A stretch of 53,099 nt of DNA from a virus (Duplodnaviria > Caudoviricetes). Location: the IMG/VR virus record IMGVR_UViG_3300005613_000084, positions 1 to 53,099 of that record; one strand, written 5' to 3'. The notes beneath the pieces are model-generated. The model saw only the letters and a list, made by a program, of their open reading frames with translations, was not told the origin of the DNA and searched no databases. Shown here in pieces: positions 1-53,099 of this stretch. Positions within the stretch are counted from its first letter, which is position 1; every line of letters begins with the position of its first letter. Both the position numbers and the translations under genes were made by a program.

Positions 1-123
1 ATGTTGATCCGGAGGCTTTAACTAAGGATTCTCTTCGCCAGGTAGTCAACGAGACGACGGTCCAGACCGTTATTGCCACGGCTTTTGCTGGGTCTCCCGG
101 GGTCATGCGGCAGATGAGTCGTG
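1..123. repeat. Terminal direct repeat (circular assembly overlap), copy 1
   Basis: Bases 1-123 are identical to 52977-53099. Confidence 0.97.
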
Positions 124-3100
124 CCAAAATCGAGCGGGTTACCCAGGAGATTATGACCTACGCCAGAGAGGGGAAAGTACCCTCTCGGAAGACATGGAAG
201 AAATGGGGGCTGGCTCCTGAGTATGGTGAGTCTCGAAAACAACGAAAAGCGTTCACAGAGCAGCTAACTGGCGCACTACAGACGCCCCTGGAGGCCCGAG
301 TGGTCCAGACGGCCCAGGAGCCAGCCGGAGCCCCGGAGGCCGTGAGCGAGCCGCAGACGGCTGCTGACAGGGCAGTAATGGACCAGGGATTGCCGGTTGG
401 TCACCCGGCGGTCCAGGAGGCTGCCGCTGCCCCCGCCAAGAAGCCAGCAGTGACCCCGCAAGAGGAGGCTGTTGAGCCTGCTGCTGAGCCAGCCAAGGTA
501 TTCCAGCAGAGGGCCCTCGGGATTGCCGGCAATTTGACGACAGAGGCCATGGAGTCTGGCGGCCCGTTGCCGGCAGATGGCATCCACGCACCAGAGACTA
601 CTAAGCCAGGAAAGAAGGGGAAGTCGCCTGTAGCCTCGAAAGCGCGAGCGGCGGCCGCTGATCTTGTTTCGATCGCGTCCCCGGTGGCGGCCGGTGGATG
701 GCAGGCCAGGCGGACAGGGCACATTATGCGAGAGGGGATGGCTCGTGCGGCGCAGTGGGACGAGGTGTCTAAGCATTCGCTGGACGCAATTGAGCGGTCG
801 TTCTATAAGATGTCGCCCGATGAGAGGCTTGAATTTATTGACCGCATGGAGTCGGGGAAAGAGCAGCCAGGCGAGTTGAATGTTGTCGCAAAGGTAATCC
901 GGAGTGAGTTGGACGCAGCGCGAAAACGTGTTCAAGAAGTCGGGAAGTTGGAGAAATTCAACGAAGACTATTTCCCGCACCTATGGAAATCCAGTCCGGA
1001 AGCAGACACAGTGCTTGGTCAAGTTTTTCAGAAGACATACAGAAAGTCGGGCTTCCTGCGTAAGCGAACGATTCCTACCGTCAAAGAGGGGCGCGAGGCT
1101 GGTCTTGAGCTTGTGACTGACAACCCGGCGGAGCTAGCGTTCATGCGAATTCACCATATGAATGAGTATGTCGCGAAAACCGAGGCAATGAGCCTCCTGA
1201 AGCAACATGGCTTGGCTGTGTTTGTTCCGGCGAGTTTAGAGAAAGACTATCTGCTGCCCGGATTTAAGTTCGTAGACGATCCGGCCTTTCTGGTGCAAAC
1301 ATCAGCAGATACGACAGTTACGGAAGTGTTTGATAAGTTGCTCGTGGATCAACTTACGTCAGTTGCAAACTCCCTTGGAGTGTCGACAAAGAGGGTAACG
1401 AAGCTGGAGTCATTCGGTGAGACCGTCACGACAAAGAAGGGGCGGCGGATCATCAAGACGCGGGTAGGGACCCCTGTGGCGACACTCGCACATGAGATCG
1501 GGCACAACATTGGCGAAATCTACGGTCTGTACGATTACATGGTCGAGAGTGGCGGCAAGGCAGTGCAGCAAGAATTAGATGCACTGTCATCCCTTCGCAC
1601 CGAAAGGTCGGTACCTGGAACGGAAGGGTTCGTTGAATACTCCAAAACTCCAGCGGAGCAAGAGGCTGTCATTCTAGAGGCGTGGCTTGTCTCGCCAGAG
1701 AAGATGCGCGAGGTTGCGCCGAAGGTGACTGGGATGTGGCAGGATTTCTTAGCTGCCAACGAGCCGCTGAGCCCACTCCTAATGCTGGACCGCTCACTCG
1801 TACTTGGGACGCAAGAGCAGACAATTGAGCAGCCTGGTGTGCGTGTGATTGGGCGATGGGCCATGCCGGAGAAGGTTGCGGGAATGATTGAGAACCAACT
1901 TTCCCCTGGTTTACGCCGAAATCCAAACACCGCAGTTCGCACACTATACAATACCGCAAGGATGTATGGTAATGCGATGAATCAGGCTAGCTTATCGTTG
2001 TCTGCGTTTCATGGAATTAACGTGACGACTGACGCTGTTGCCACACAAACTGGCGTGTCAATCCTGAAATTACTGCGCGGTGACTTGCCAAGCGCGGCGG
2101 CAGAATTCGTCACAGCCCCAATGGCTGGCTTCAAGTCGTTGTGGCGCGGAAACAAACTTATTAAAGCGATGCGCGGCGACCTCAGCAAGATAAAGAATCA
2201 GAAGTTAGCGGACACAATCGAGGACGTTATCAGGGCTGGTGGGCGGGCCAGTATGGACGCCAGGTACCATAATCAGTCGATTAGGGCCCTCAGAAACACA
2301 TTCTACAACCTGAAGTTCGGGGGGCCCATAAAAAAGGTGTCCTCGGCCATTAAGCTCCCGGTTCAGAGTGTCTTTGCGACACTGGAGGCAGCAGCAATTC
2401 CAATCATGGAGTATATGGTACCGAGGCTGAAGCTGGGGACGTTTCAGTATTTGGCAGGTGACATATACAGTAGGTCGGCTAATCTTTCCGAAGAACAGAT
2501 TACTGAACAACTAACTCAGGCATGGGATAGTGTAGATAACCGCCTTGGCCAGCTTCCGTATGACAACTTGTTCTGGAATCAGTACGTCAAGGATGTGTCT
2601 ATGTTGGCGGTACGGTCGGTTGGGTGGAATCTCGGTTCGATCCGCGAGTACGGTGGTGCAGTCACGGACATCTTTACTGCCAAGGAACGGATTGCAATGG
2701 GCGGGGAATTAGTTAGTGGCAAACAGGCTTATGTAATGGGGGCAGCCGTTTCGTATGCAACCCTCGGGGCCGTGCTGACTTACCTGTTTACTGGAGATCG
2801 ACCGAAAGAGTTGAAGGATTATTTTTTCCCGCCCACCGGCAAGCAGAATCCGGATGGAAGCGCTGAGCGGATTGGTCTACCGACCTATTCCCGTGATGTG
2901 TACTCGTGGACGCACGACCCGGCGCGAACGGCGCATCATAAAGTGCATCCGATGTGGGGCACGTTTATTGACATGTGGGCCAACGAGGACTACTACGGCA
3001 CAGAGATTCGGAATGCAGACGATCCACTAATGGCTCAACTGATTAATAGCGTGCAGCATGTTGGAGAAGCATACATACCGTTTTCGGTTCGCAATTACAT

Positions 3101-3575
3101 GAGGATGCGCGAGGCTAAAGAGCCGGCTGCCCAGGCTGCCGTTGCGAGTGGCCTCGGAATCACGTCTGCTCCCGCATATATCACGCGAAGCAAGGCGCAG
3201 AAACTCGCTATGAAGTATCTCATTGCGAAGATACCGGCCGGCTCCCGCACGCAAGAGAAAGCAGAGAAGAGCAAAAGGCGAAAGGGGCTCGTTCGCCAAC
3301 TGAGGGCCGGAGAGGAAGTTGCGCCAGAAGAGTTTGAGGGTCTCACTCTCACGGAACGGAAAGGAATCGTTGCGGAATCACGATTACAGCCGCTTGCCGC
3401 GTCAGTCAAGAGGCTGTCGTTACGTGAGGCGCTTGATGTGTACCTGCAAAGTACGCCAGAAGAGCGTAAACAACTGTGGCCAATTGTTGTGGCGAAGCGC
3501 CAGAACGCAAGAGCGATAGACCAAGAGGTAGCTAAATACTACCTTGAAGTCGCAAAACTGTCGAAGACGTTGTAA
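105..3575 (+). CDS. C-terminal part of a large (~1454 aa) internal virion/DNA-ejection protein; gene starts at 52187 and crosses the contig junction
   Basis: The frame is open from GTG 52187 through the repeat into this ORF (ATG 53081 = ATG 105). Last gene of the virion module. Contains an HExxH motif (AHEIGH). Function inferred from size and position. Confidence 0.75.
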   Translation: MRQMSRAKIERVTQEIMTYAREGKVPSRKTWKKWGLAPEYGESRKQRKAFTEQLTGALQTPLEARVVQTAQEPAGAPEAVSEPQTAADRAVMDQGLPVGHPAVQEAAAAPAKKPAVTPQEEAVEPAAEPAKVFQQRALGIAGNLTTEAMESGGPLPADGIHAPETTKPGKKGKSPVASKARAAAADLVSIASPVAAGGWQARRTGHIMREGMARAAQWDEVSKHSLDAIERSFYKMSPDERLEFIDRMESGKEQPGELNVVAKVIRSELDAARKRVQEVGKLEKFNEDYFPHLWKSSPEADTVLGQVFQKTYRKSGFLRKRTIPTVKEGREAGLELVTDNPAELAFMRIHHMNEYVAKTEAMSLLKQHGLAVFVPASLEKDYLLPGFKFVDDPAFLVQTSADTTVTEVFDKLLVDQLTSVANSLGVSTKRVTKLESFGETVTTKKGRRIIKTRVGTPVATLAHEIGHNIGEIYGLYDYMVESGGKAVQQELDALSSLRTERSVPGTEGFVEYSKTPAEQEAVILEAWLVSPEKMREVAPKVTGMWQDFLAANEPLSPLLMLDRSLVLGTQEQTIEQPGVRVIGRWAMPEKVAGMIENQLSPGLRRNPNTAVRTLYNTARMYGNAMNQASLSLSAFHGINVTTDAVATQTGVSILKLLRGDLPSAAAEFVTAPMAGFKSLWRGNKLIKAMRGDLSKIKNQKLADTIEDVIRAGGRASMDARYHNQSIRALRNTFYNLKFGGPIKKVSSAIKLPVQSVFATLEAAAIPIMEYMVPRLKLGTFQYLAGDIYSRSANLSEEQITEQLTQAWDSVDNRLGQLPYDNLFWNQYVKDVSMLAVRSVGWNLGSIREYGGAVTDIFTAKERIAMGGELVSGKQAYVMGAAVSYATLGAVLTYLFTGDRPKELKDYFFPPTGKQNPDGSAERIGLPTYSRDVYSWTHDPARTAHHKVHPMWGTFIDMWANEDYYGTEIRNADDPLMAQLINSVQHVGEAYIPFSVRNYMRMREAKEPAAQAAVASGLGITSAPAYITRSKAQKLAMKYLIAKIPAGSRTQEKAEKSKRRKGLVRQLRAGEEVAPEEFEGLTLTERKGIVAESRLQPLAASVKRLSLREALDVYLQSTPEERKQLWPIVVAKRQNARAIDQEVAKYYLEVAKLSKTL

Positions 3576-3600
3576 CTACTTTTTCCTAGGAGATGCATCT

Positions 3601-4026
3601 ATGGGACTGCTGCAATTGCTTTCGTTACTGAGACGTGTGCCCGTTCGTGATCTGATTGATTTCCCTGACGACCTGAGCGATAGTGAGGACGTTCGTCGTT
3701 GGACTATGGCGGCCATTGAGTTGGGCGTCGTGCTGGCTGAGCGCACCGTGATTGAGGTCGACGACACGATCTTCGATTTCGCTGCTGACCTGGTTGGTAA
3801 TGACGATTCGTGGGCTTTGATTCACGGTGTCGTGTTGGCGGTCATTGAGGGGCGATTCACGCCCGAGCAGAGCCTTCAGTGTTCGCAGGAGCTTCAGGAG
3901 GTTACCGAGTGCGCATTCAATCCGATGATGATCTTCGCAATCATCCAGGCTGTCCAGGCTGGGATTAAGATTCTGAAGGCGATCCGCGCGGCTCGTCAGC
4001 AGCGCCAAATTTCGCTTGCCGTGTAG
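3601..4026 (+). CDS. Hypothetical protein with C-terminal hydrophobic/amphipathic helix and basic tail; possible lysis-associated membrane protein
   Basis: AGGAG RBS before ATG 3601; C-terminus PMMIFAIIQAVQAGIKILKAIRAARQQR; lies directly after the virion genes. Confidence 0.55.
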   Translation: MGLLQLLSLLRRVPVRDLIDFPDDLSDSEDVRRWTMAAIELGVVLAERTVIEVDDTIFDFAADLVGNDDSWALIHGVVLAVIEGRFTPEQSLQCSQELQEVTECAFNPMMIFAIIQAVQAGIKILKAIRAARQQRQISLAV

Positions 4027-4039
4027 AGAGGAGGCATCC

Positions 4040-5026
4040 GTGAGACGATTGCTTTTGATTCTGCTATTGGCTTTGCCGGGGTGTGTGCCTATATCAGAGG
4101 ACCAGGAAGATGCGCTGAAATCACCTCCGGTTACATTGCCGATCCCGGAACCCGGCGATCCGATTACTGAGCCGGCCCCAGAGCCCTCTGCCGACCAACT
4201 TCGCGAATACCTCGCGGCGACTTGCCGTCTGCGCGGTGGGGGCTCTGGCGGGACAGGATGTTGTTTTGCGGTTGACGATCAGTACGTCTATATCCTGACT
4301 TGTCGGCACGTCGCCGGACGGACGAAGACGTTTGAGGCTGAGTTCTGGCTGCACGGCCGGATTACTGGCAAGTACAAAGCGACGACCGTGAAGGTCCTGA
4401 CGGTCGACGCTGCGGTTCTCAAGATTCCAGTGAGCGCCTTCAAGGAAGGCGAACTACCAAACGCCATTCCAATCGGCGAGAAGTCGCCAAAGAAAGGCAG
4501 CACGATCATTTCAGTCGGCTGCCCGGGGCTCTCGTGGCAATCGCTGTTTGAGGGGCACGTTAAGGGGAGCGCGAACATGACTCCGCAGTATAACGGTGGC
4601 AGGACGAGCTTCACGTTCGTCCCGCCACCCAAGGGTGGCCGGTCGGGTTCCGCGATTCTCCAAGATGGGAAGATCGTTGGAATCCTCTGGGGCTCCGATG
4701 GCGGAATCGGCTATGCCGTGCGCGCCGAGGATTTCCGGGCCGGAGCTATGAGCGCGATCGGCTCACGAGAGGGCTCTGGTAATTTCTTCTTCCGGGCGGA
4801 CTGGTGTAGGTTCTGCCCGGAAATGAATGAGGTCGTGGTTCAGTTAGTCCAGGAAGGTGTTGATATCCGGGTGATTGACTACGATGAGAACACGACGTTC
4901 GCGGAGATGTACGATATCGGTGGGTTGCCGGCCTATGTGAACCGGCTAGGTGAGACGTTGTCTGGGGTGCAGCCGATTGGCCGGCTGCGCGAGTTCTACG
5001 GGAGGGGGTGCAAGTGCGATTCTTAG
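4040..5026 (+). CDS. Predicted lipoprotein: trypsin-like serine protease plus C-terminal thioredoxin-like domain
   Basis: GGAGG RBS then GTG 4040; signal peptide with lipobox (RRLLLILLLALPG-C); Pro-rich linker; triad motifs LTCRHV, DAAVL, GGRSGS; ADWCRFC CxxC motif followed by thioredoxin-like GGLP. Confidence 0.85.
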   Translation: MRRLLLILLLALPGCVPISEDQEDALKSPPVTLPIPEPGDPITEPAPEPSADQLREYLAATCRLRGGGSGGTGCCFAVDDQYVYILTCRHVAGRTKTFEAEFWLHGRITGKYKATTVKVLTVDAAVLKIPVSAFKEGELPNAIPIGEKSPKKGSTIISVGCPGLSWQSLFEGHVKGSANMTPQYNGGRTSFTFVPPPKGGRSGSAILQDGKIVGILWGSDGGIGYAVRAEDFRAGAMSAIGSREGSGNFFFRADWCRFCPEMNEVVVQLVQEGVDIRVIDYDENTTFAEMYDIGGLPAYVNRLGETLSGVQPIGRLREFYGRGCKCDS

Positions 5027-5280
5027 CCTGCTGTCCACTGTGGGGGATGGCCGCACTCTTAGCGGCCGAAGGGACGCCAGGAATCCCCCAGATCGCCCCC
5101 GAGATGCTTCAAGGCGGAGCCCTGGCGGTCCTCGGCTGGACAATATATTATGTGTTGTCACGCGTTGGCCCGGCTCACACAAAGGCCCTGACGGAGCAGA
5201 GAGACGCCTTCCTGGAGGCCCTGAAGGCTGAGCGGCAGGAAATACGTGAACTCCTCTCGGCGCTCCGGAGGCCAGACTGA
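5008..5280 (+). CDS. Small membrane protein with C-terminal coiled coil (holin-like)
   Basis: Hydrophobic segments (WGMAALLAA; GGALAVLGWTIYYVL) and a charged helical tail; followed by a terminator. Confidence 0.5.
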   Translation: MQVRFLACCPLWGMAALLAAEGTPGIPQIAPEMLQGGALAVLGWTIYYVLSRVGPAHTKALTEQRDAFLEALKAERQEIRELLSALRRPD

Positions 5281-5300
5281 GCGTTAGGTGGGGCGGGAGC

Positions 5301-5333
5301 GAGCCGGCCGAGGTCACGGTCGGCTCTTTTTTT
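5301..5333 (+). terminator. Rho-independent terminator ending the late/lysis operon
   Basis: GAGCCGGCCG-aggtca-CGGTCGGCTC stem followed by T7. Confidence 0.85.
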
Positions 5334-5660
5334 GCGCGGGTGTAATCACACCCAAACCTGTTCCCTATAGTCCCTATTGTCCCCAATTTGTCATATCAAA
5401 TAAGAGTTGATATTGACATAACCTATTGCGGGGTAATGGGATGCGATCCGTCGCTATTTTCTCGCTTTATGCCTCACGAGCATGCGCCACTGCCTTCTTG
5501 GCGTCACCCTAAGATGCTGGCTAGTAGCGACTTGCGAGTTGGTCGTCTTATCTGACGGAAATCCAATAACACCCGCTTTACACCCGGGAGCTTTCTGGGT
5601 ATGCTGAATTAGTACAATTTGCTTTGGAAAATGCTATACTTCCTCTGGAGGGTGGTTGAC
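5334..5660. other. Probable attP-containing intergenic region
   Basis: Non-coding gap between the lysis terminator and the integrase; holds two 25-bp imperfect palindromes (5419-5443, 5510-5534). Core site not identified. Confidence 0.4.
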
Positions 5661-6821
5661 ATGGCGAGACCTGAAGTTGTCACGTACCGCGATTGGAAAC
5701 GCGAGCATCCCGACTGGCCCCTGACGGTCCATCCGAGCGGCCAGTGGTCGAAGAAGGTCAGAGGGCGCGTCCACTACTTCGGTCCGCTGTCTGACCCCGA
5801 CCGGGCGTTGCGACTCTGGCTCCAGGAACGCGATCATCTATTGGCCGGGATAATCCCGCCCACGCAAGACGGCGGCTTGACGGTCCGGGAACTAGTCGCC
5901 AGGCACCTCGCCGATGTGGACGACCGGATCGCCACTGGTCGGCTTTCGCCACAGACGCGCTATGATTACGTGGCCGCCAAGCGGCTCCTAGAGGATACCC
6001 GGCTCGCTGGGATGCCAGTCGCATCTCTGGGGCCGGAGCACTTCACAGCAGTCCAGAGCGGCTTGGAGCGGTCGGGGTACAGCCGGTCGACGATGCGTAA
6101 TCGTATCACAGCCGTTAAAACCGTCTTTCGCTGGGGTCGCGAGATGGGGCTGTACGACCGAGAGATTCGTTACGGCCCGAGGTTCCGTCCCCCTGGGCTT
6201 CATGCAATCGAGATTGAGCGAGAGGATCGCGGTAAGACTAGATTCCTGGATCGGGAGATGATTCTGACGGCACTTGGGACCGCGGCCCCCGACATGCAGA
6301 TCGCGATCCTATTGGGGATCAACTGCGGGTTCTATCAGGGTGATTCGGTTGTAATCACGCTTGACCACCTTCATCTGGATGGCGAGATACCGTATCACGA
6401 CTTCCGCCGCGTGAAAAACGGACGTGAACGCCGGGCGGCTCTCTGGCCTGAGACGGTCAAAGCGATCCGGGATTATCGGTACAACTATCGCAAACCGATC
6501 GACCAGACTGAACGCCGCCTCCTGTTGACTAGGCGGCGGCGCGCACATAGCGGACGAGGGGCATTAGAGCGATCGTGGTGTAAGTTGCTGCCGAATGCTC
6601 CCCTGGGCGCCTCCCTCGGTTCTCTCCGTCACACCTACGCTACTGTTGTAGACCTCGTGCCCGACCAAGCCATGATCGACCTTACGATGGGGCACGCCCC
6701 GCGTTCGCTGCAAAAACGGATCTATTCGCAACTCAATCTACATGAGCTAGGGAGGCTACGGAAAATAGCGCATACTGTACGCGAATGGTTATTTGATGGA
6801 TCGGTGCAGGATTCGCCTTGA
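5661..6821 (+). CDS. int: Tyrosine recombinase / phage integrase
   Basis: GGAGGG RBS; N-terminal arm-binding-like segment; RVKNG, SLRHTYAT, MGH and a C-terminal Tyr (RIYSQL). The first catalytic Arg position reads GFYQGD. Confidence 0.9.
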   Translation: MARPEVVTYRDWKREHPDWPLTVHPSGQWSKKVRGRVHYFGPLSDPDRALRLWLQERDHLLAGIIPPTQDGGLTVRELVARHLADVDDRIATGRLSPQTRYDYVAAKRLLEDTRLAGMPVASLGPEHFTAVQSGLERSGYSRSTMRNRITAVKTVFRWGREMGLYDREIRYGPRFRPPGLHAIEIEREDRGKTRFLDREMILTALGTAAPDMQIAILLGINCGFYQGDSVVITLDHLHLDGEIPYHDFRRVKNGRERRAALWPETVKAIRDYRYNYRKPIDQTERRLLLTRRRRAHSGRGALERSWCKLLPNAPLGASLGSLRHTYATVVDLVPDQAMIDLTMGHAPRSLQKRIYSQLNLHELGRLRKIAHTVREWLFDGSVQDSP

Positions 6822-22104: not shown

Positions 22105-22695
22105 CTATTCCCCCTCCGGTTCCTCTAGGTCCGGCGGATTCAACGTGGTGCCACACGGACACACCGGCAGGCCAACCTCCAACCACTTCTGCGTTGTGCG
22201 CACCGTATATCCACAGTCTGCACACTCCAATTTCTTCATGCGAGTTGTCTGTGTCTTCGGCGCGTTGCTGTAGTCTAGCTGGGCGTGCGGATACTTGCCG
22301 ATCCCTTTCGTGATTCCCTTGAGCGTGGCTTTCAGTTCGTCACTTGCTGTTGTGTCAGTCATTCTGCCCTTTAACCCCACTGCCCTGGCCAGCGCGCCGA
22401 AGCGTTTACCATGCTTCTGGTCGATCCCGACCGCGCAGTGAACCAACTCGTGAACAAGCACAGCCGCTACTTCGATTGGATCATCAAGCAGGGGGGAGAT
22501 GAAGACCTCAAAGCTCCCATCCGCACTTTGCTTACTGCACCACGCCTCCCCGATTCGTTTGCGATGCTTCGCTAAGGCTGACTTAGACGGCCAGGAGCAC
22601 GAGGCCCGGACCTTCCTGGGGACCGGCTGTCCAGCTTCACGGAATACCGGGCGAAGGGCACTAATACACTCTGATAGCCATTTCTCTCGGTTCAT
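22105..22695 (-). CDS. SprT-like zinc metalloprotease
   Basis: LVHELVH...HGKRF and C-terminal CADC...CPC zinc ribbon. Confidence 0.85.
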   Translation of the reverse strand: MNREKWLSECISALRPVFREAGQPVPRKVRASCSWPSKSALAKHRKRIGEAWCSKQSADGSFEVFISPLLDDPIEVAAVLVHELVHCAVGIDQKHGKRFGALARAVGLKGRMTDTTASDELKATLKGITKGIGKYPHAQLDYSNAPKTQTTRMKKLECADCGYTVRTTQKWLEVGLPVCPCGTTLNPPDLEEPEGE

Positions 22696-23123
22696 CGCTT
22701 GCCTTTCTCTGTTACTTCACGTTTCCTCTTAACCCAGCGCCGGCCACACACTGACGCTAGACACCGTTCGTTTCGCTGCGCGATACTCCTAAATAGCGGG
22801 TGATTGATTGTATCTAGCAAATACAACTCGTGCAGTTCAATCGCGATAGCGAGCAACTTCTTGCTTTCGCGCTGGGCCCGAAGCTCATACAGCAACGGCC
22901 CGCGGGTGTGAGTCGGCAGTTGGGTGTTACCACACACTGGACAGCGCTTCTCAAGCCTTCTCCGCCGCGCTTCGGCTCGCCCCTCCGCTTGCTTGGCGTT
23001 GAAACAGCGTTTACACACCGCCGCTATTCGCCGTGCACCTCCAGGCCGCGCCGGGCCCTTGAATGCAAAACACTCAATCGGCCTGGCCTCAAAACAGTTA
23101 GAGCAGATTTTGCGCTCAACCAT
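22692..23123 (-). CDS. Zinc-finger protein
   Basis: CSNC, CKRC, CPVC; N-terminus resembles 8874..9284. Confidence 0.65.
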   Translation of the reverse strand: MVERKICSNCFEARPIECFAFKGPARPGGARRIAAVCKRCFNAKQAEGRAEARRRRLEKRCPVCGNTQLPTHTRGPLLYELRAQRESKKLLAIAIELHELYLLDTINHPLFRSIAQRNERCLASVCGRRWVKRKREVTEKGKR

Positions 23124-23337
23124 TGGCTAACTCCCCGAAGGTTCTCAGCACGATTTCCCTGCGCTCTGGCGGACCATCGGCCAGGTAGAGCAAGATGCCG
23201 GCCAGTAGGTGGGCCGTCATTGGGGTGAAGTCGATCGCCTCCAGCCGCTTTTTGTAGCGGTTGTAGCGCTGTGCCGCGGGATTACCGCGGGGACGCTTAG
23301 CTTTGCGACTCGGGAGTGGGTTGGTTGGGATTTTCAT
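23116..23337 (-). CDS. Hypothetical basic protein
   Basis: Overlaps neighbours at both ends within the operon. Confidence 0.6.
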   Translation of the reverse strand: MKIPTNPLPSRKAKRPRGNPAAQRYNRYKKRLEAIDFTPMTAHLLAGILLYLADGPPERREIVLRTFGELANG

Positions 23338-23504
23338 ACAATCACCCCCCCTACCTGAAGGCGAAACGGCTCGCCTTCATGCGGGCCGCTCGTGATTACC
23401 CCACACATGAATAGTCTCCCATCTTCCTCGATAACGTCCATAATTTGCAGGGCGTAATCACCCGGGGGCATACTGTCGATGGTGTGTACTACAGGTTTAG
23501 TCAT
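23334..23504 (-). CDS. 56-aa protein resembling the N-terminal half of DUF669 SSB
   Basis: Starts at a linker repeat; MTKPVVHTIDSMPPGDYALQIMDVIEEDGRLFMCGVITSGPHEGEPFRLQVGGVIV; ATGA overlap with the next gene. Not in the ORF track. Confidence 0.7.
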   Translation of the reverse strand: MTKPVVHTIDSMPPGDYALQIMDVIEEDGRLFMCGVITSGPHEGEPFRLQVGGVIV

Positions 23505-23713
23505 TGCTTGCCTTTCTCTGGTGCTTCAAGTTTCGCTAATACCCTCCGACAGCGGCTACACGTTGGTCTGCGCAGTCGTGTTTCACGTGGATTCAGAATG
23601 AAAGTTCCGCAGAGTGTGTCCAGCAGGTTTCCGTCTGCGCTCCTGTCTTGGTCGAGGGCGCAGCACCAGTCCTTTTTGCCCACTTTACGGGCGCACCACA
23701 CTTTATTACTCAT
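23501..23713 (-). CDS. Small Cys-rich protein (70 aa)
   Basis: Starts at a linker repeat (MSNKVWC...); TLCG...PTCSRC; ends in linker-encoded EAPEKGKQ. Confidence 0.7.
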   Translation of the reverse strand: MSNKVWCARKVGKKDWCCALDQDRSADGNLLDTLCGTFILNPRETRLRRPTCSRCRRVLAKLEAPEKGKQ

Positions 23714-24044
23714 TGCTTGTCTTTCTCTGGTGCTTATACTGTCTGATTCTGGCACAATTACCCGATGATTTACAATAGGTACCGTGGTAGCGCAGACCGT
23801 TGATTGCGTGAACGTCAATCGGCACGCGCACTCCGCCAAAGTTATCCCGGTACTCGCGACCGAAACATACGCTCCCTAGCCGCTCTCCAGTCCAGGTAGT
23901 TGCCCTTTGGTTCTCTTTGTCGATATAGAGAGAGTATCGGTCTGGTTTGTCGCGCAGAAACTCGTACACTTCTACGGCGCTGATTTCATCATTCGACTGG
24001 CGATCAATTCGTGCGCGAATTGCCTTATACTCGGTCTCAGTCAT
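23706..24044 (-). CDS. Hypothetical phage protein
   Basis: Starts at a linker repeat; TTWTGERLG motif. Confidence 0.75.
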   Translation of the reverse strand: MTETEYKAIRARIDRQSNDEISAVEVYEFLRDKPDRYSLYIDKENQRATTWTGERLGSVCFGREYRDNFGGVRVPIDVHAINGLRYHGTYCKSSGNCARIRQYKHQRKTSNE

Positions 24045-24226
24045 TGCTTGCCTTTCTCTGGTGCTTCACAGGTGACGAACCCGGCGCGGTCCTCATATTT
24101 CAGGGTGCGCTCCATTCCGCGCCGGTCACTCTCTGCTTCAGCCTGAGTGTGATACGGCCCGCAAGGCTCGACACCCTGTAAGCCGACCACCCACCAGCCG
24201 TCCGCACGTTGTTCGGCCCTGGACAT
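24041..24226 (-). CDS. Hypothetical phage protein
   Basis: GWW...GPYHTQAEAE; ends in linker-encoded EAPEKGKQ. Confidence 0.7.
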   Translation of the reverse strand: MSRAEQRADGWWVVGLQGVEPCGPYHTQAEAESDRRGMERTLKYEDRAGFVTCEAPEKGKQ

Positions 24227-24477
24227 TAGACTGCTGCCTTTGCTTTTTCCTTCTGGCCACTAATCGAGCCATCATACAGAATCCGATTCGTGCCAAAGCC
24301 GCCCCATCGAATTAAAGCGACTTCAACGCAATCCACGCCGTCCTGGTCGACGTAGGCTGTACAGCGAACCGCGCCCGACCACGAGGCGCACTGCGTCACC
24401 ATGCCGGAGTTTTTTGACCCCAGTCGGGTTGCTCGTGTCCTTGCCTTGCCCGTTGCGGTACCATAAAAACGTGCCAT
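24226..24477 (-). CDS. Hypothetical phage protein
   Basis: GGAGA RBS; MARFYGT...ATRLG; TAATG coupling. Confidence 0.7.
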   Translation of the reverse strand: MARFYGTATGKARTRATRLGSKNSGMVTQCASWSGAVRCTAYVDQDGVDCVEVALIRWGGFGTNRILYDGSISGQKEKAKAAV

Positions 24478-24507
24478 CGGTGCATTCTCCAGGGTGTGAA
24501 ACAGAAA

Positions 24508-24915
24508 TCAGCCAATGTGCAGCCGGCCATCATCGCCAACCACAACCCAACACTCGCCGAACGCCTTGCAGGCTTCCGTAAGCTTGTCGCCCACTTCACC
24601 CAACTCCCGATCCCAGAAACCGGCCCCATGGCTATGTCGCGTCAACCAGAAATCATGCCCAGCCATTTCGTCGTCTGAGAATTCGTCATTGTTGTAGTGT
24701 GCCTTTTGCAGAAGCGCTGCATTCTCGGCTTGGAACTTCCGGCAATCCGTGATTGCCCTCTTAATCGCTTCTGGCGTGAAGTCGTCAAGCCCGTAGTTGC
24801 TGTCAAGCGGTACTCCGCCTGATTCGTCTGCGTTGTCGGTCTCTGCCCATAACGCACACTCCAGGTACGCAATTGTGAATGCGCCGAGGTCAGTGGGTGT
24901 AAGGGTGTCGTTCAT
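24508..24915 (-). CDS. Hypothetical acidic phage protein
   Basis: AYLECALW...AGHDFWLTRHSHGAGFWDR; starts at a partial linker. Confidence 0.75.
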   Translation of the reverse strand: MNDTLTPTDLGAFTIAYLECALWAETDNADESGGVPLDSNYGLDDFTPEAIKRAITDCRKFQAENAALLQKAHYNNDEFSDDEMAGHDFWLTRHSHGAGFWDRELGEVGDKLTEACKAFGECWVVVGDDGRLHIG

Positions 24916-25082
24916 TGTTGCTTGCCTTCTGTCTTATTGTCGTGGGTTCGCAGTCCACGGCCTACCATCTGTGAGTAGAGCCCAGCACACGCACGGCAAT
25001 AATAGGTGCGCTCGCCCGACTTCCGGTTGACTACAGTGTGCCGCACGCGCGGTCGACCACAATTCACACAAACCTTTGCCAT
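24912..25082 (-). CDS. 56-aa zinc-ribbon protein fused to a helicase motif VI peptide
   Basis: MAKVCVNCGRPRVRHTVVNRKSGERTYYCRACAGLYSQMVGRGLRTHDNKTEGKQQ; linker repeat at the start and ATGA overlap at the end. Not in the ORF track. Confidence 0.75.
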   Translation of the reverse strand: MAKVCVNCGRPRVRHTVVNRKSGERTYYCRACAGLYSQMVGRGLRTHDNKTEGKQQ

Positions 25083-25183
25083 CGTTACTTGCCTTTCTCT
25101 GGTGCTTAACGGAAACGAGTAAAATCGAGCCCCCGCCCGGGAGGCGAACCCCGGTTACGCAATTGCGGGTGAGGGGGGGCTAG

Positions 25184-25459
25184 TCAGAATGCAGTTGTGC
25201 CCCAACTGCGCAGCCGGAACGGGATACGCTTAGCTGTGGCCTTGATATGACTGTGCCTGCTGTTATCAATGCCACATTTTGCCTGCGCGATTGCCTCATT
25301 GTGGTCTGCGGCAAGGACGAACACGCGCGATTTCACGCCCTCATATCGCAAGGTGACGCGCCACAAGTGCATCTCGCGTCCCTCGCGAGTAAGGGCGTAG
25401 GTGTAATCGTCGCGCTCTGTGACATGTAGCGTGGCTTCCGGTGTGGTCAAGGTCTTCAT
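25184..25459 (-). CDS. Hypothetical protein
   Basis: GGAGA RBS before ATG 25459 (MKTLTTPE...). Confidence 0.65.
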   Translation of the reverse strand: MKTLTTPEATLHVTERDDYTYALTREGREMHLWRVTLRYEGVKSRVFVLAADHNEAIAQAKCGIDNSRHSHIKATAKRIPFRLRSWGTTAF

Positions 25460-25461
25460 AG

Positions 25462-25596
25462 TCAGTTCTCCAATCCACAAGGGCGGTAGTCCGGGCGCTG
25501 CATGGCGCGCCAGATGATGCGCTTCATGCGTGCTTGTTCTCGTGCTTGGCTGTCCATGGTGAGCACCTTACGTAGCCGACGGAGTAGCTTGCTCAT
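25462..25596 (-). CDS. Small basic protein (44 aa)
   Basis: GAGGGGA RBS; MSKLLRRLRKVLTMDSQARE...; fills the operon gap. Confidence 0.5.
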   Translation of the reverse strand: MSKLLRRLRKVLTMDSQAREQARMKRIIWRAMQRPDYRPCGLEN

Positions 25597-36030: not shown

Positions 36031-37068
36031 ATGGGGCTTCCGTATTCGGATATTGACGATGCGGTTCTCTTGACGCAAGAGAATCTTGTCAAAAAGGGCG
36101 CGTTCGTGGATATGCAAACTGATTTGCAGGACCACGTCGCGGTTCGTGAGCTTTGGAAGAAGCATGTTAAGACGTTCGAGGGTGGTGATGATTGGCGCTG
36201 GGATGCGCAGATGGATCACAACCACTCGGCGCGTGCGGTCCAGTTGTTTGAGACGGACGGGTCGTCCCTGACGGACACGATGAAGCAGGGCACAGTGAGC
36301 CCTCGTCACGTCAACGCACACTATATTTACGATCAGCGAGAGAAGGATTTCCAGCGCGGCGGTCATGCGATCGTCAATCTGATTAAGACTCGTTACGTCG
36401 GGATGATGGTCTCGTTTTACGAGACGTTGGAAGGATTTTTGTGGGGCAAGCCCGACGACTCGTCGGATGAGCGCACGCCCTATGGTCTTCAGTATTGGAT
36501 CGTCAGAAATGCGACCGAGGGCTTCAATGCCGAGAACCCGACTGGGTTCACTGATGGCCGTGGCAATATCGACTCGACCGTCTACGAACGCTGGGCGAAT
36601 TGGTCGAACGACTACCTCGCGATTTCCAAAGAGGATCTGATTCGTTCGATGCGTCGGGGGCACCGTAAGACGCGGTTCCGCTCGCCGGTCTCGCATGCCG
36701 TGCCGAGCCTCGCCAAGACCGGAAATGGAATCTACACGAACGATGCCGTGCTTGGGATCATGGAGGAACTGCTTGAGCAGCAGAACATGAACCTTGGCAA
36801 TGACCTGGCCAGTAAAGATGGCCGGGTGACGTTTAAGTCGACCCCGGTGATATATGCACCGTACCTCGACAACGACAGCGAGAATCCGGTCTACATGCTG
36901 GATTGGAAGTGGCTGGCAATCGGTGTGATGGCTGGATGGCAGAACCAACTGACTAAGCCATATATGGTCAAAGACAAACACTTGGTCCGCCGAGTCGACT
37001 TGGACGCTACGCTGCAAATGGTCTGTACGGACTTGCGTAAGCAGAGCATTTACTACAAGGCTGCGTAA
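36031..37068 (+). CDS. Major capsid protein
   Basis: 345 aa after the scaffold; size and synteny fit an HK97-fold capsid (LWG...PYGL motif). Confidence 0.8.
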   Translation: MGLPYSDIDDAVLLTQENLVKKGAFVDMQTDLQDHVAVRELWKKHVKTFEGGDDWRWDAQMDHNHSARAVQLFETDGSSLTDTMKQGTVSPRHVNAHYIYDQREKDFQRGGHAIVNLIKTRYVGMMVSFYETLEGFLWGKPDDSSDERTPYGLQYWIVRNATEGFNAENPTGFTDGRGNIDSTVYERWANWSNDYLAISKEDLIRSMRRGHRKTRFRSPVSHAVPSLAKTGNGIYTNDAVLGIMEELLEQQNMNLGNDLASKDGRVTFKSTPVIYAPYLDNDSENPVYMLDWKWLAIGVMAGWQNQLTKPYMVKDKHLVRRVDLDATLQMVCTDLRKQSIYYKAA

Positions 37069-38043: not shown

Positions 38044-38544
38044 ATGGCGGAAGACAGGAAGGAATGCACGCGATGTGGCGAGTGGAAGCTAATATGTGAA
38101 TTCCCTAAAGACAAAAAGGGTAGGAACGGGTACGCCTCTATTTGTAAGGCATGTGTTCTGACTAGGAGGCAGAAGGGGTACGAGTACCAGAAGGAATATT
38201 GGGATAAGCCGGGGAATAAAGCGAGAAAGAAAGAGAACGCGAGAAAGTCGTATCTCAGGAATCGTGAGAAAATTCTTGAGAGAAACAGGACGCGGAATAT
38301 CTCTAGAAGGTACGGGTTGCCTGTTGGCGCTTTCGAGGAAATGCTAGCAAGACAGGGTGGGCGGTGTCGGATTTGTGGGATGAAGCCGAAAAAGCGTAGG
38401 TTGCACATAGATCACGATCACGATAGTGGGGCCGTTCGCGGATTACTTTGTCAACGGTGCAATCATATGCTAGGTAATGCAAAAGATAATCCGGCCATAT
38501 TAAGGATGGGTGCACTTTACCTAGAGGAGAGTAGCTTTGAGTGA
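38044..38544 (+). CDS. Endonuclease VII-family (probable homing) endonuclease
   Basis: QGGRCRICG...HIDHDH...VRGLLCQRCN; N-terminal zinc finger; inserted among structural genes. Confidence 0.9.
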   Translation: MAEDRKECTRCGEWKLICEFPKDKKGRNGYASICKACVLTRRQKGYEYQKEYWDKPGNKARKKENARKSYLRNREKILERNRTRNISRRYGLPVGAFEEMLARQGGRCRICGMKPKKRRLHIDHDHDSGAVRGLLCQRCNHMLGNAKDNPAILRMGALYLEESSFE

Positions 38545-51070: not shown

Positions 51071-52197
51071 TGGGAATTCGAGTCAAACATGGAGAAGGCG
51101 ACATTTCGGCCCTGGCCGGGCTTGCTGCGTTGGCTGGAGCTACTGAGGCCCGGACGCCACAAGCGCCGCAAGTATCGCCGCAAGGGGCGCCGCGAGGTGG
51201 TGGCGGTGGTGGCGACAGGCGGTCTGGGGTGAGCCGCGGCCCGACGCTGGCTGACTATGGACAGCTTCATTACCCAAGCGATCGCGAACGGGCTGCCGAG
51301 GCGAAGACTCGGGAGATGGAGTATCAGCAGCGGTTGATTAAGCAGGAAGAAGCCCAAAAGCGAGCGATCCCGGTCGACTTCAAGTATACGCCGAAGCAGC
51401 GCGCGAAGATTGCGCATCTCCAGAACAGCAAGCAACAAATGCAGGCTAGTGAGAGATTTTCGCCACAAGAAAAAGAAATGTTATCGCATAAATATGATGC
51501 GGAAATCGACGCGATCAAGCCGACTGGAATCCCTCGCGACCCCAACGCTCCACAGTACCCGGAGGGCCGCGGGCCTGGTGATACGTTCCAAGAAGCAGAT
51601 GGTGCGTGGTATACGATCGACGAAAAAGGTGTGAAGAAACTTCTGTCGCGTTATGACCAAACGCGCGAAGGGATTGAGCAGAAGGCAGCCGCAGCGCATG
51701 ACCTCAAACTTCTTGATCTGCGCCATAAGCTGGCCACTGAGCAAATTGAAGCTGGCATAGGGAAGGATGGATTGCCAATCAAGCGCTATCGCACTAGCGA
51801 AGAGATTGACGAGAGAATGGCGATCATTTCTAACGAGCAGCCAGAGGTTGAGTACCGTGAAGACCTGGAGCCTGTATTACGCAAGATGGTGGCGGACCGC
51901 AAGAAGGGAGAGGAATCAGAGAAACCCAAGGGTCCTGATTACGTTAGTCGAGACAAATCAGGGAAGCCAAAGGGTCGCAAATATCTCTCCCGCGCAAGAA
52001 GCATGGGTATAAAAACGACAGAAGCCGAAGAGGGAATGCCGCGAGACGTTGGGATTGCCCAGGCATTCCTGCGTACGATTCAGGGGCGATTGCTCGCCGG
52101 GTATGAGCCCTCAGGACGAATAGCAGATGCGATTGATGAGGCAACCGCTATCGTCGAATGGTATGCCATCACACAGGGAGAGCAAGGTGCCGATTGA
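51070..52197 (+). CDS. Putative DNA-ejection/internal virion protein
   Basis: TAATG-coupled; charged helical protein. Confidence 0.6.
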   Translation: MGIRVKHGEGDISALAGLAALAGATEARTPQAPQVSPQGAPRGGGGGGDRRSGVSRGPTLADYGQLHYPSDRERAAEAKTREMEYQQRLIKQEEAQKRAIPVDFKYTPKQRAKIAHLQNSKQQMQASERFSPQEKEMLSHKYDAEIDAIKPTGIPRDPNAPQYPEGRGPGDTFQEADGAWYTIDEKGVKKLLSRYDQTREGIEQKAAAAHDLKLLDLRHKLATEQIEAGIGKDGLPIKRYRTSEEIDERMAIISNEQPEVEYREDLEPVLRKMVADRKKGEESEKPKGPDYVSRDKSGKPKGRKYLSRARSMGIKTTEAEEGMPRDVGIAQAFLRTIQGRLLAGYEPSGRIADAIDEATAIVEWYAITQGEQGAD

Positions 52198-53099
52198 CCT
52201 TGATGTTCTGAAGTTCGCTCGTCAATATCGCGATGAAGCGCCCGCGGTACGCAGGGGTGGCCAGGTCGATCCTAGCTTAATTGAGTTTGGTCGTAATCTG
52301 AGTACGCAACTTCATCAAAAGCAACCGCAACCGGAGCGCCAAGAGTTGACGGAAGCGGAGCGCCGTCAGTCGATGCAAATCATCGAGCGCGAGAGACTGC
52401 TGGCGCAGGCCAGTAAGACGCTTGGCGAATCGAATCTACCTGGAGTCAAGGCGTATGCGATCCAGGCCGGCGGTGACCTTACTGCGCTAGGTGCTCGGCT
52501 GATCGGTAAAGATGAGTATGCCGATCGGATGAATCGCTTCACTGACGCTATCGAGGAAGTACAGCGTAAGCGTGAGCGCGGCGGAATCGTTCCTGACGTG
52601 ATTCAGAGTGGTGTGCGTGGGGCTGGGCGTTCGCTTACGACAATGGGGGCAGCCGGAATGGTTGGTGGTCCAGCCGCAGCGATCGCAGCCGCTTCCACTC
52701 AAGAGGCGAACCGAGCCATCACTGAGGGGCGGGACGCCGGACTGAAGGGCACTAAACTGGCCAGCTATGCGGTCGGCCAGGGCGTCATTGAGGGGGTTCC
52801 GGCTGCTGTTATGCAGCGAATGGGCCTTGGTGGCGTGGAGTCTATGGTTGCCGGCAAGCAGGCCGTGGCGAGTGGCGTTCGTGAAGGGCTGAAGCGGATA
52901 GGGATGGCAATCGCGCAGGAAGTCCCAGAAGAGCTTGTGACTGAGATCAGTCATAGCGTAGCTGCGAAGGTGGCTGATGTTGATCCGGAGGCTTTAACTA
53001 AGGATTCTCTTCGCCAGGTAGTCAACGAGACGACGGTCCAGACCGTTATTGCCACGGCTTTTGCTGGGTCTCCCGGGGTCATGCGGCAGATGAGTCGTG
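52187..53099 (+). CDS. N-terminal part of the ~1454-aa internal virion protein (continues to 3575)
   Basis: GGGAG RBS, GTG 52187; no in-frame stop to the window end; in frame with ORF 105..3575. Missed by the ORF track. Confidence 0.85.
   Translation, partial: MPIDLDVLKFARQYRDEAPAVRRGGQVDPSLIEFGRNLSTQLHQKQPQPERQELTEAERRQSMQIIERERLLAQASKTLGESNLPGVKAYAIQAGGDLTALGARLIGKDEYADRMNRFTDAIEEVQRKRERGGIVPDVIQSGVRGAGRSLTTMGAAGMVGGPAAAIAAASTQEANRAITEGRDAGLKGTKLASYAVGQGVIEGVPAAVMQRMGLGGVESMVAGKQAVASGVREGLKRIGMAIAQEVPEELVTEISHSVAAKVADVDPEALTKDSLRQVVNETTVQTVIATAFAGSPGVMRQMSR
52977..53099. repeat. Terminal direct repeat (circular assembly overlap), copy 2
   Basis: Identical to 1-123. Confidence 0.97.

Follow-up and report, generated by a model that had tools for sequence, protein, structure and literature searches.

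A lipoprotein serine protease-thioredoxin fusion in the lysis position of a phage from a lineage that integrates in Planctomycetales genomes

To our knowledge, every known tailed-phage lysis system for walled bacteria includes a peptidoglycan hydrolase. Mycobacteriophage LysB is an esterase working beside the classical endolysin, and the SAR endolysin Lyz of phage P1 is a lysozyme activated by disulfide isomerisation, without a thioredoxin domain. A title-level literature search, in which subscription journals were thinly covered, found no title describing planctomycete-phage lysis genes or a cassette such as the one presented here. We have analysed a phage genome of about 53 kb with an integrase-like gene (IMGVR_UViG_3300005613_000084; the window is this whole stretch of 53,099 nucleotides), in which a lipoprotein joining a serine protease to a thioredoxin-fold domain is encoded, together with two small membrane proteins, at the end of the late operon.

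The first 123 nt of the window are repeated exactly as its last 123 nt, and the reading frame of a giant virion- or ejection-type gene is continuous across the ends, with its 5' part at 52127-53099 and its 3' part at 1-3575, both on the + strand (about 1474 aa in total, stop at 3575). Its homologues in relatives have 1149-1865 aa and are followed by the cassette where this is present. A weak Pfam SprT-like match (E 1.3e-4) to one of the 62 ORFs of the window would, judging from the HEIGH motif at 1491-1505, belong to this gene. Between its stop and an intrinsic terminator that closes the late operon (5301-5333, + strand; stem at 5301-5326 with 10 pairs, 8 of them G-C, followed by TTTTTTT), there are three + strand ORFs, as an earlier reading of the sequence without database searches (hereafter the sequence-only reading) had described. 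The cassette genes are tightly packed behind the giant gene, and no promoter-like site was found on the + strand from 3000 to 5576. The cassette adjoins an integrase-like gene of 400 aa (5619-6821, + strand), which is read as such from motifs and position only, its product having neither a Pfam match nor a PDB sequence match. No tRNA genes were found in the source genome.

The central gene (4040-5026, + strand) encodes a protein of 328 aa. Although its ORF is open from 4016 (336 aa), we place the start at the GTG at 4040, because it is preceded by GGAGG and because the N-termini of the homologues agree. The N-terminus is a signal peptide with an LPGC lipobox (4040-4084, cysteine at 4082-4084), assigned by motif; a cysteine occupies the lipobox column in 14 of 20 aligned sequences, the other six having a hydrophobic N-terminus, so that the fusion is probably a Sec-exported, lipid-anchored protein. 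A PA-clan protease domain follows (4190-4756), matching Pfam Trypsin_2 at E 5.5e-15 (56.8 bits, cut-off 27.6), with the catalytic His, Asp and Ser at 4307-4309, 4406-4408 and 4643-4645. Structure prediction covered two proteins, and the AlphaFold2 model of the fusion has a mean pLDDT of 83; its best Foldseek matches, led by MarP/Rv3671c, are MarP, DegS, DegP and DegQ (E about 1e-11, identity 17-24%), indicating an HtrA-like fold. Pfam finds no PDZ domain, and the C-terminus has instead a thioredoxin fold (4775-5005) with the motif WCRFC (cysteines at 4805-4807 and 4814-4816) and an invariant proline at 4928-4930, probably that of the cis-Pro loop. All 20 of the 20 aligned sequences have H98, D131, S210, C264, C267 and P305 (residue numbers refer to the 336-aa ORF), and C264, C267 and P305 align to the WCGPC motif and loop proline of solved thioredoxins. 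The single sequence stays below the cut-off for Pfam Thioredoxin (20.4 versus 23.5 bits); the family profile matches solved thioredoxins in the PDB at E 1.6e-10, and 14 of the 19 homologues in the fusion alignment A2 carry a precomputed PF00085 annotation. The lipobox, the intact triad and the WCRFC thioredoxin-like domain noticed in the sequence-only reading are thus borne out.

The upstream protein, gpA (3601-4026, + strand; 141 aa), is acidic (21 D+E versus 12 K+R); its only hydrophobic helix lies towards the C-terminus (residues 109-125) and precedes a basic tail, so that the earlier label of amphipathic is roughly right. The protein is a candidate holin, antiholin or lysis regulator. It is conserved in five of seven viral loci, and a two-segment membrane protein with the sequence GLLRSKTFWVN takes its position in L005, L006, L015 and L017. 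Downstream of the fusion, gpC (5014-5280, + strand; 88 aa) has a GTG start behind GGGAGGGGG, with 5008 as an alternative start, and can be described from its sequence as holin-like: its N-terminus has a hydrophobic segment, the segment LQGGALAVLGW is conserved, and the C-terminus is helical and charged; in the protein of the window the first hydrophobic segment alone rises above the hydropathy threshold. A weak Atlas lead for gpC pointed to Holin_BhlA (score 0.84). Hydropathy and conservation of gpA and gpC would fit holins, yet neither these two nor the alternative upstream protein matches a Pfam, PHROGs or NCBIfam family beyond two weak matches, DUF7940 (E 0.003) and a holin PHROG (E 0.16). 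A spanin pair was also considered and rejected, as the lipoprotein of the cassette is a 328-aa enzyme and the helical end of gpC should, from its charge distribution, be cytoplasmic. An overlapping ORF at 4950-5231, whose LAGC motif is weak, was likewise dropped as an o-spanin candidate for want of conservation in L001.

Synteny of the cassette holds in all fusion-bearing relatives examined, with the fusion directly followed by gpC in 7/7 viral loci and in 7/7 metagenome loci having downstream sequence, so that this survey of the gene neighbourhood finds a conserved cassette flanked by holin-like small membrane proteins. The integrase-like gene lies 3' of the cassette in six of the seven viral loci, the exception being L006; since L006, L019 and L021 retain the cassette with no integrase gene 3' of it, the cassette is not tied to a lysogeny module. 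Neither the protease nor the terminase-like protein had a tblastn match among 50,697 phage records. The distant 241-aa secreted proteases of L023-L027, on AT-rich contigs of about 100 kb, were set aside as a different family in a different context.

Two relatives show what may occupy the equivalent place when the fusion is absent. G421 has no match to the fusion family profile A2; upstream of a gpC homologue (41% identical) it carries a Trypsin_2 protease with a signal peptide (E 3.4e-16), and there are also four membrane proteins and a YiiX/C92-like cysteine peptidase (matched by Foldseek to 3kw0 and 2if6 at E 6e-5, TM about 0.5). In the integrated prophage of G582, the genes directly after the giant gene, at the prophage end, encode a C92-like peptidase that lacks a signal peptide, a pair of exported proteins, and a thioredoxin that has a lipobox and the motif WCGPC (Pfam E 1.9e-12); there are also two membrane proteins of one segment each, of which one is tail-anchored. 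The recurrence of exported peptidases, a lipoprotein thioredoxin and small membrane proteins at this place therefore makes a lysis role likely. Motif-based guesses that the 181-aa protein of G582 and the 224-aa protein of G421 are papain-like peptidases, and that the 229/233-aa protein has a thioredoxin fold lacking CxxC, had no phmmer support in the PDB and stay guesses. The same protease domain was found in a wider set of 36 distinct viral-contig proteins from 44 viral loci. A hydrophobic segment lies just before the domain in 35 of the 36 and at the C-terminus in 22, the next downstream ORF is small and has a hydrophobic segment at its N-terminus in 14/32, and a C92-like ORF lies just upstream in nine of the 31 with enough upstream sequence, a pairing in view of which the lysin may be another enzyme, to which the protease is accessory.

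No peptidoglycan hydrolase was recognised in the window. When the 62 ORFs were compared with Pfam, the best 25 of 45 families at E ≤ 0.01 included none that is muralytic, and the best 25 families of each PHROGs comparison included no lysis family; any family beyond these could only be weaker (E > 5.7e-4 for Pfam, and E > 2e-4 to 4e-4 for PHROGs). Ten late ORFs scanned directly against PHROGs gave no lysis family, and the fusion protein itself matches no muralytic family. A six-frame search of the genome with nine muralytic Pfam families yielded 0/9 matches at E ≤ 1, each of the nine having matched in 1 to 14 of 14 control genomes. The earlier statement that no amidase, lysozyme, transglycosylase or M15/M23 peptidase can be recognised is therefore upheld. 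Its stronger form, that the fusion stands instead of an endolysin, may hold for this clade only, because the C92-like peptidase of the relatives could be a wall amidase.

With regard to the host, several observations support the Planctomycetota type that had been proposed from the sequence. A protease 81% identical to that of the fusion lies on a contig of an uncultured Planctomycetaceae MAG, the contig that harbours the integrated G582 prophage (1.79 Mb) comes from a genome of the same order as this MAG, and clusters combining Trypsin_2 and thioredoxin are commonest in Planctomycetota. The phage lineage thus integrates in Planctomycetales genomes. The terminase-like protein had no match in 401 sampled Planctomycetota genomes, and a search for attB with region 5281-5640 in 20 genomes of the MAG family returned the phage contig itself and chance-level matches only. 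As to the envelope, an excerpt of one study reports that murABCDEFGJ and mraY are non-essential in Planctopirus limnophila, with normal growth and shape of the mutants, and places a protein with the Cys-rich YTV domain in a Planctomycetes-restricted group of essential genes (PMC10632474); an excerpt of another confines YTV genes to Planctomycetales (PMC8567305), and an excerpt of a review cites the finding of peptidoglycan components in Planctomycetes (Jeske 2015, van Teeseling 2015). The MAG, a candidate host, has 10 matches to YTV repeats (controls 0/14) and five Mur-ligase matches, from which peptidoglycan is probably present in it, yet no enzyme for peptidoglycan was seen in the phage. The premise of a proteinaceous wall is reasonable given the Cys-rich YTV proteins of the host order, and needs updating in view of the peptidoglycan components and the Mur ligases.

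From its sequence and context, we read the fusion as a lysis-module enzyme with a role in lysis, and we put the probability of this reading at about one half. The fusion would be made late in infection and placed in the periplasm, where its thioredoxin domain would exchange disulfides, either opening Cys-rich, disulfide-crosslinked wall proteins or switching conserved cysteines of the protease domain itself. The protease domain would then cut envelope proteins, with gpA or the two-segment protein upstream, and gpC downstream, serving as putative holin-type timers. Given Cys-rich YTV wall proteins in the host order and dispensable peptidoglycan synthesis in Planctopirus, a disulfide-crosslinked protein wall is a reasonable substrate, which we infer. 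The direction of the redox reaction is likewise putative, and an exported thioredoxin for which no electron donor is known could act in oxidation or isomerisation instead of reduction.

Other roles have to be weighed. The fusion might be an accessory lysis factor that removes an extra envelope layer, such as a protein wall or outer-membrane tethers, much like LysB or spanins in other hosts, with an unrecognised peptidoglycan hydrolase encoded elsewhere in the genome. The C92-like peptidases found beside the protease in relatives, the several enzymes of the G421 and G582 cassettes, the Mur ligases of the MAG and the many window ORFs, about 40, without assignment would all be accommodated by such a role, which we nevertheless consider unlikely, as two C92-like families gave no match in the window (six frames, E ≤ 10) and the listed Pfam and PHROGs matches included none to a muralytic family. 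That the fusion is itself a true endolysin of unusual fold, an S1-type protease cutting the stem peptides or cross-links of peptidoglycan, would be in keeping with the lack of any other candidate, and bacteriolytic S1 proteases of Lysobacter exist. This is very unlikely, however, since the fold matches are to protein proteases of the HtrA/MarP type and not of the alpha-lytic type, and it is not obvious what a CxxC thioredoxin would do on peptidoglycan. MarP is reported to activate RipA by cleavage in Mycobacterium, and as MarP/Rv3671c is the best structural match, the fusion could be imagined to activate a wall hydrolase of the host in the same way; the resemblance is one of fold only and there is no known partner, which makes an activator of host autolysins highly improbable.

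Roles outside lysis have also been considered. Prophage ends are a usual place for lysogenic-conversion genes, and the Llp lipoprotein of phage T5 offers a parallel for a function in exclusion or debris avoidance. The fusion is a lipoprotein, its gene comes after the virion genes and beside an integrase-like gene, and in G582 the cassette is at the prophage end; it could degrade or misfold a surface receptor or the entry proteins of a rival phage, and would protect lysogens or keep progeny off debris. Superinfection exclusion or lysogenic conversion appears distinctly unlikely to us, because the cassette genes follow the late operon closely, with no promoter-like site of their own on the + strand (3000-5576), relatives keep the cassette where no integrase lies 3' of it, small membrane proteins always accompany the fusion, and the signal-less peptidase of G582 could get to the envelope only with a holin. 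Since serine proteases are often found in phage genomes, a virion or prohead maturation protease might be thought of, but the signal peptide with lipobox, the membrane anchoring of the relatives and a distance of about 17 kb downstream from the capsid-like gene (36031-37065) leave this hardly credible.

Returning to the fusion as a lysis-module enzyme, its implications can be extended to a broader proposal, which is tentative and, in our estimation, doubtful: phages of Planctomycetales would lyse by redox-assisted proteolysis and not by peptidoglycan hydrolysis, the fusion would be the sole envelope-degrading lysin of this clade, opening and cutting YTV-type wall proteins, and the thioredoxin-protease fusions of Planctomycetota cells would serve the hosts themselves as 'autolysins' of a protein wall. 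If this is true, the pairing of an exported protease with a disulfide oxidoreductase represents a host-specific answer to an envelope strengthened by cross-linked protein, and the substrates of the fusion would name the load-bearing components of the planctomycete wall, an old question. The results also indicate that membrane-anchored serine proteases of phages form a broader family, so far undescribed (the 36 proteins and 44 loci above), part of which, 9/31, is paired with YiiX/C92-like peptidases.

In its arrangement, the locus resembles holin-endolysin(-spanin) cassettes: it is short, it closes the late operon, and it combines a putative envelope-directed enzyme with flanking small membrane proteins and a terminator. 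It differs from them in that the enzyme is in no known muralytic family and carries its own lipoprotein signal for export, and in that its membrane proteins are without a match among holin and spanin families. The fusion shares fold, catalytic triad and a predicted periplasmic location with the HtrA family and MarP (Rv3671c), whereas it is phage-encoded, has no PDZ domain and ends in a CxxC thioredoxin. Cellular Planctomycetota proteins with thioredoxin and Trypsin_2 combine the same two domains and are exported, with ORFs of about 520-620 aa in the sampled genomes; in the five full-length examples the domains come in the opposite order (signal, then WC[GA]PC thioredoxin, a linker, the protease and a long tail), and they match the phage profile mainly via the thioredoxin part (E 1e-10 to 1e-14). 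LysB acts with an endolysin, of which none was seen in the source phage, and shares with the proposed role of the fusion that a lysis enzyme attacks a host-specific envelope layer other than peptidoglycan. Finally, P1 Lyz provides a precedent for the thiol-disulfide control of an exported phage lysis enzyme, a control that is putative for the fusion.

The giant virion-type gene is followed on the plus strand by three genes and a strong intrinsic terminator, an arrangement that the sequence-only reading had described together with a lipobox protease, intact in its His/Asp/Ser motifs, fused to a CxxC thioredoxin; both descriptions are borne out. The first gene, gpA (3601-4026), encodes an acidic protein with one C-terminal hydrophobic helix and then a basic tail. 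For the middle gene the most likely start codon is the GTG at 4040, which has GGAGG upstream and with which the homologue N-termini agree. The product of the third, gpC (5014-5280), has a hydrophobic segment at its N-terminus, the conserved stretch LQGGALAVLGW and a helical, charged tail. The genes overlap or lie at most 25 nt apart, no promoter-like site is present on the plus strand between 3000 and 5576, and the terminator (stem 5301-5326, eight G-C pairs, then a T run) closes the cassette.

The middle protein matches Trypsin_2 (Pfam, E 5.5e-15), and its AlphaFold2 model (20-sequence input, mean pLDDT 83) is closest among solved structures to MarP/Rv3671c, DegS, DegP and DegQ (E ~1e-11), with no PDZ domain found; in BFVD it matches phage proteins labelled 'trypsin-like' and 'periplasmic serine protease'. 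The final ~85 residues have a thioredoxin fold: the single sequence scores slightly below the Pfam thioredoxin cut-off, and the family profile matches solved thioredoxins at E 1.6e-10. In all 20 aligned sequences the triad (H98, D131, S210), both cysteines of the thioredoxin motif (C264, C267) and P305 are invariant, as are C70 and C83; C96, two residues N-terminal of the catalytic His, is kept in 19. The lipobox Cys is present in 14 of the 20, and the other six have a hydrophobic N-terminus. These domain and fold matches, invariant residues and N-termini indicate that the protein is an exported protease, with a probable lipid anchor and a thioredoxin domain that is catalytically plausible as a thiol-disulfide oxidoreductase.

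The window, 53,099 nt long, represents a genome with a unit length of 52,976 nt, either closed into a circle or terminally redundant, since positions 1-123 recur as an exact 123-nt direct repeat at 52977-53099 and the giant ORF (52127 to 3575, plus strand, ~1474 aa) runs in frame across the record ends; its database class is direct terminal repeats, at 100% completeness. The giant virion-type protein carries a HEIGH zinc-protease-like motif (1491-1505), to which a weak SprT-like Pfam match (E 1.3e-4), seen in one of the 62 window ORFs, probably belongs, and this region could be an entry-associated peptidase. Beyond the cassette, a 400-aa integrase-like gene (5619-6821, plus strand) looks by eye like a tyrosine recombinase (RHTYAT ... 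MGH ... Y); it had one chance-level match and no other in Pfam at E<=0.1, and none among PDB sequences at E<=1. An endonuclease VII-type gene (38044-38541, PHROGs E 5e-36) lies inside the structural module, with a second, copy-like match among the early genes, and some ten small minus-strand genes, most without assignment, separate the replication and packaging modules (22105-25480). The window has no tRNA genes, and neither its protease nor its terminase-like protein found a match by tblastn in 50,697 deposited phage genomes.

Judged by sequence profiles, the genome has no recognisable muralytic enzyme, as had been claimed; structure models covered two proteins, so a cryptic muralytic fold may yet be present. 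The 62 ORFs matched 45 Pfam families at E<=0.01, and the best 25 of these (all E<=5.7e-4) have roles in replication, regulation and structure, with no muralytic family among them. PHROGs scans of the same 62 ORFs, of 28 late ORFs, of 32 early or small ORFs and, directly, of ten unassigned late ORFs gave no lysis family among the best 25 families listed; one early or small ORF matched PHROG 200, 'lipoprotein', at E 1.5e-4. When the six frames of the window were searched with Phage_lysozyme, Amidase_2, SLT, Peptidase_M23, Peptidase_M15_4, Glyco_hydro_25, Glyco_hydro_19, Amidase_3 and Glyco_hydro_108, none of the nine matched at E<=1; in the controls, every one of them was detected in 1 to 14 of 14 genomes.

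Besides the window's own protein, the fusion has 22 database relatives. At 50% clustering about five representatives match both domains (P0015, P0011, P0020, P0028 and P0029); the number of matching representatives is 53 at E<=1e-30 and rises to 1235 when the limit is E<=1e-10, the majority of those listed matching by the protease domain alone. The neighbourhood is kept in related phages: the order giant gene, protease, gpC holds in all seven viral loci, and a gpC homologue lies 3' of the protease in all seven metagenome loci having downstream sequence, in two cases (L015, L018) with one or two small ORFs in between. The flanking genes vary more, with gpA 5' of the protease in five of the seven viral loci and the integrase-like gene 3' of the cassette in six. 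In L005 and L006 the place of gpA is taken by an 80-100-aa protein that contains the motif 'GLLRSKTFWVN' and is hydrophobic in two segments, a protein which L015 and L017 also carry, and in L006, L019 and L021 the integrase is absent and gpC directly adjoins early genes.

Two related genomes carry other cassettes. G421, a 48.6-kb record (95% complete), has most structural and replication genes in common with the window and no match to the family profile. Early genes in convergent orientation come after its giant gene, and elsewhere a seven-gene cluster (L054:10244-14261), preceded by a resolvase gene, ends in a gpC homologue (41% identity). The other six genes encode a protease with a signal peptide (Trypsin_2, E 3.4e-16; hhalign against the fusion family, probability 51%, E 1.6e-4), four proteins that contain hydrophobic segments, and a 218-aa YiiX/C92-like protein with invariant His and Cys, whose model from five sequences (pLDDT 76) resembles YiiX and Bacillus cereus 'cysteine peptidase' structures (E 6e-5, TM ~0.5). 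G582 holds a ~49-kb prophage within a 1.79-Mb contig, to which 27 of 61 window proteins match, the capsid-like protein at 65% identity. There, a 1865-aa giant gene is directly followed by six minus-strand genes (L074:3246-6282) at the very end of the prophage, with host-like genes adjoining on the far side. The first encodes a C92-like peptidase that lacks a signal peptide (Peptidase_C92, E 0.0028). The other five encode, in order, a protein with a lipobox, one with both a signal and an anchor, one with a single hydrophobic segment at the N-terminus, a stand-alone 116-aa lipobox thioredoxin (WCGPC, Pfam E 1.9e-12) and a 98-aa tail-anchored protein. Thus, exported serine protease, CxxC thioredoxin, C92-like peptidase and small membrane proteins recur in varying combinations, which in the window clade and in G582 come behind the virion genes and in G421 lie just 5' of early genes.

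A profile built from ten longer relatives led to 45 viral loci (L075-L119), of which 44 match the family profile, giving 36 distinct proteins of 173 (a truncated ORF) to 800 aa. A hydrophobic segment lies just N-terminal of the protease domain in 35 of the 36, the exception being 5'-truncated, and C-terminal of it in 22; proteases with segments on both sides could be anchored at both ends. WCxxC follows the protease domain in four. A small ORF with an N-terminal hydrophobic segment occurs within 260 nt downstream in 14 of the 32 with enough sequence there, and in 9 of the 31 whose upstream sequence is long enough a C92-like ORF adjoins or precedes the protease. The C92-like ORFs form two groups, homologous by hhalign (probability 89%, E 2.5e-6), and neither matches the six frames of the window at E<=10. 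The secreted 241-aa trypsin-like proteases of L023-L027, on ~100-kb AT-rich viral-like contigs with no obvious lysis context, proved unrelated.

The Planctomycetota-type host proposed earlier is upheld. An 81% identical protease lies on a contig of a metagenome-assembled genome (MAG) titled uncultured Planctomycetaceae; as the 18 kb examined carry phage genes throughout, binning is the sole basis for this link. The prophage of G582, a genome of the same order, is stronger evidence at order level: its GC is 0.51-0.57, against 0.61 in flanks with housekeeping-type genes. The capsid-like protein was matched in 5 of 401 genomes of that order. In published accounts, the planctomycete wall is described as protein-dominated, with peptidoglycan components detected later, and YTV genes as confined to Planctomycetia/Planctomycetales (the review PMC12673574, and PMC8567305). 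For Planctopirus limnophila, one study reports murABCDEFGJ, mraY and other wall-synthesis genes as non-essential, deletion mutants with normal growth and appearance, and, among Planctomycetes-restricted essential genes, one for a protein with the YTV domain, which is Cys-rich and a suggested regulator of wall rigidity (PMC10632474). The MAG has ten YTV-repeat matches, against none in 14 controls, and five Mur-ligase matches.

The cassette is most economically explained as a lysis module suited to an envelope where cross-linked protein outweighs peptidoglycan, and we give the lysis-module reading a probability of about 0.5. It draws on the position and packing of the genes, their export signals, the small membrane proteins that always accompany them, the cassette's independence of the integrase and the varied combinations of its parts in relatives; moreover, a relative's peptidase without a signal would need a holin to gain access to the envelope. 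That the fusion is the sole proteolytic-redox lysin against Cys-rich wall proteins is a bolder claim, which we consider rather unlikely. The thioredoxin domain could open disulfides of the substrate or switch the protease via C70, C83 or C96.

Of the three main rivals, one makes the fusion an accessory lysis enzyme beside a hydrolase that the profile searches do not see. Another takes the fusion as an exclusion or conversion lipoprotein, a role that the lipobox would suit and that has to be set against the cassette's independence from the integrase and its constant small membrane partner. Direct action of the protease on peptidoglycan peptides or host autolysins is less likely. Among the titles listed in literature searches, none dealt with lysis by planctomycete phages or with protease-thioredoxin cassettes.

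The fusion has cellular parallels, which also fit the proposed host. ESM Atlas clusters that pair Trypsin_2 with thioredoxin are commonest in Planctomycetota, and the sampled genomes encode 520-620-aa proteins in which a signal peptide is followed by a WC[GA]PC thioredoxin, a linker and the protease; at five Planctomycetota loci (L034, L036, L039, L041 and L043) the proteins are of 540-580 aa, with a long tail after the protease. These cellular proteins share the domain pair of the phage protein but in reversed order, with the thioredoxin before the protease.
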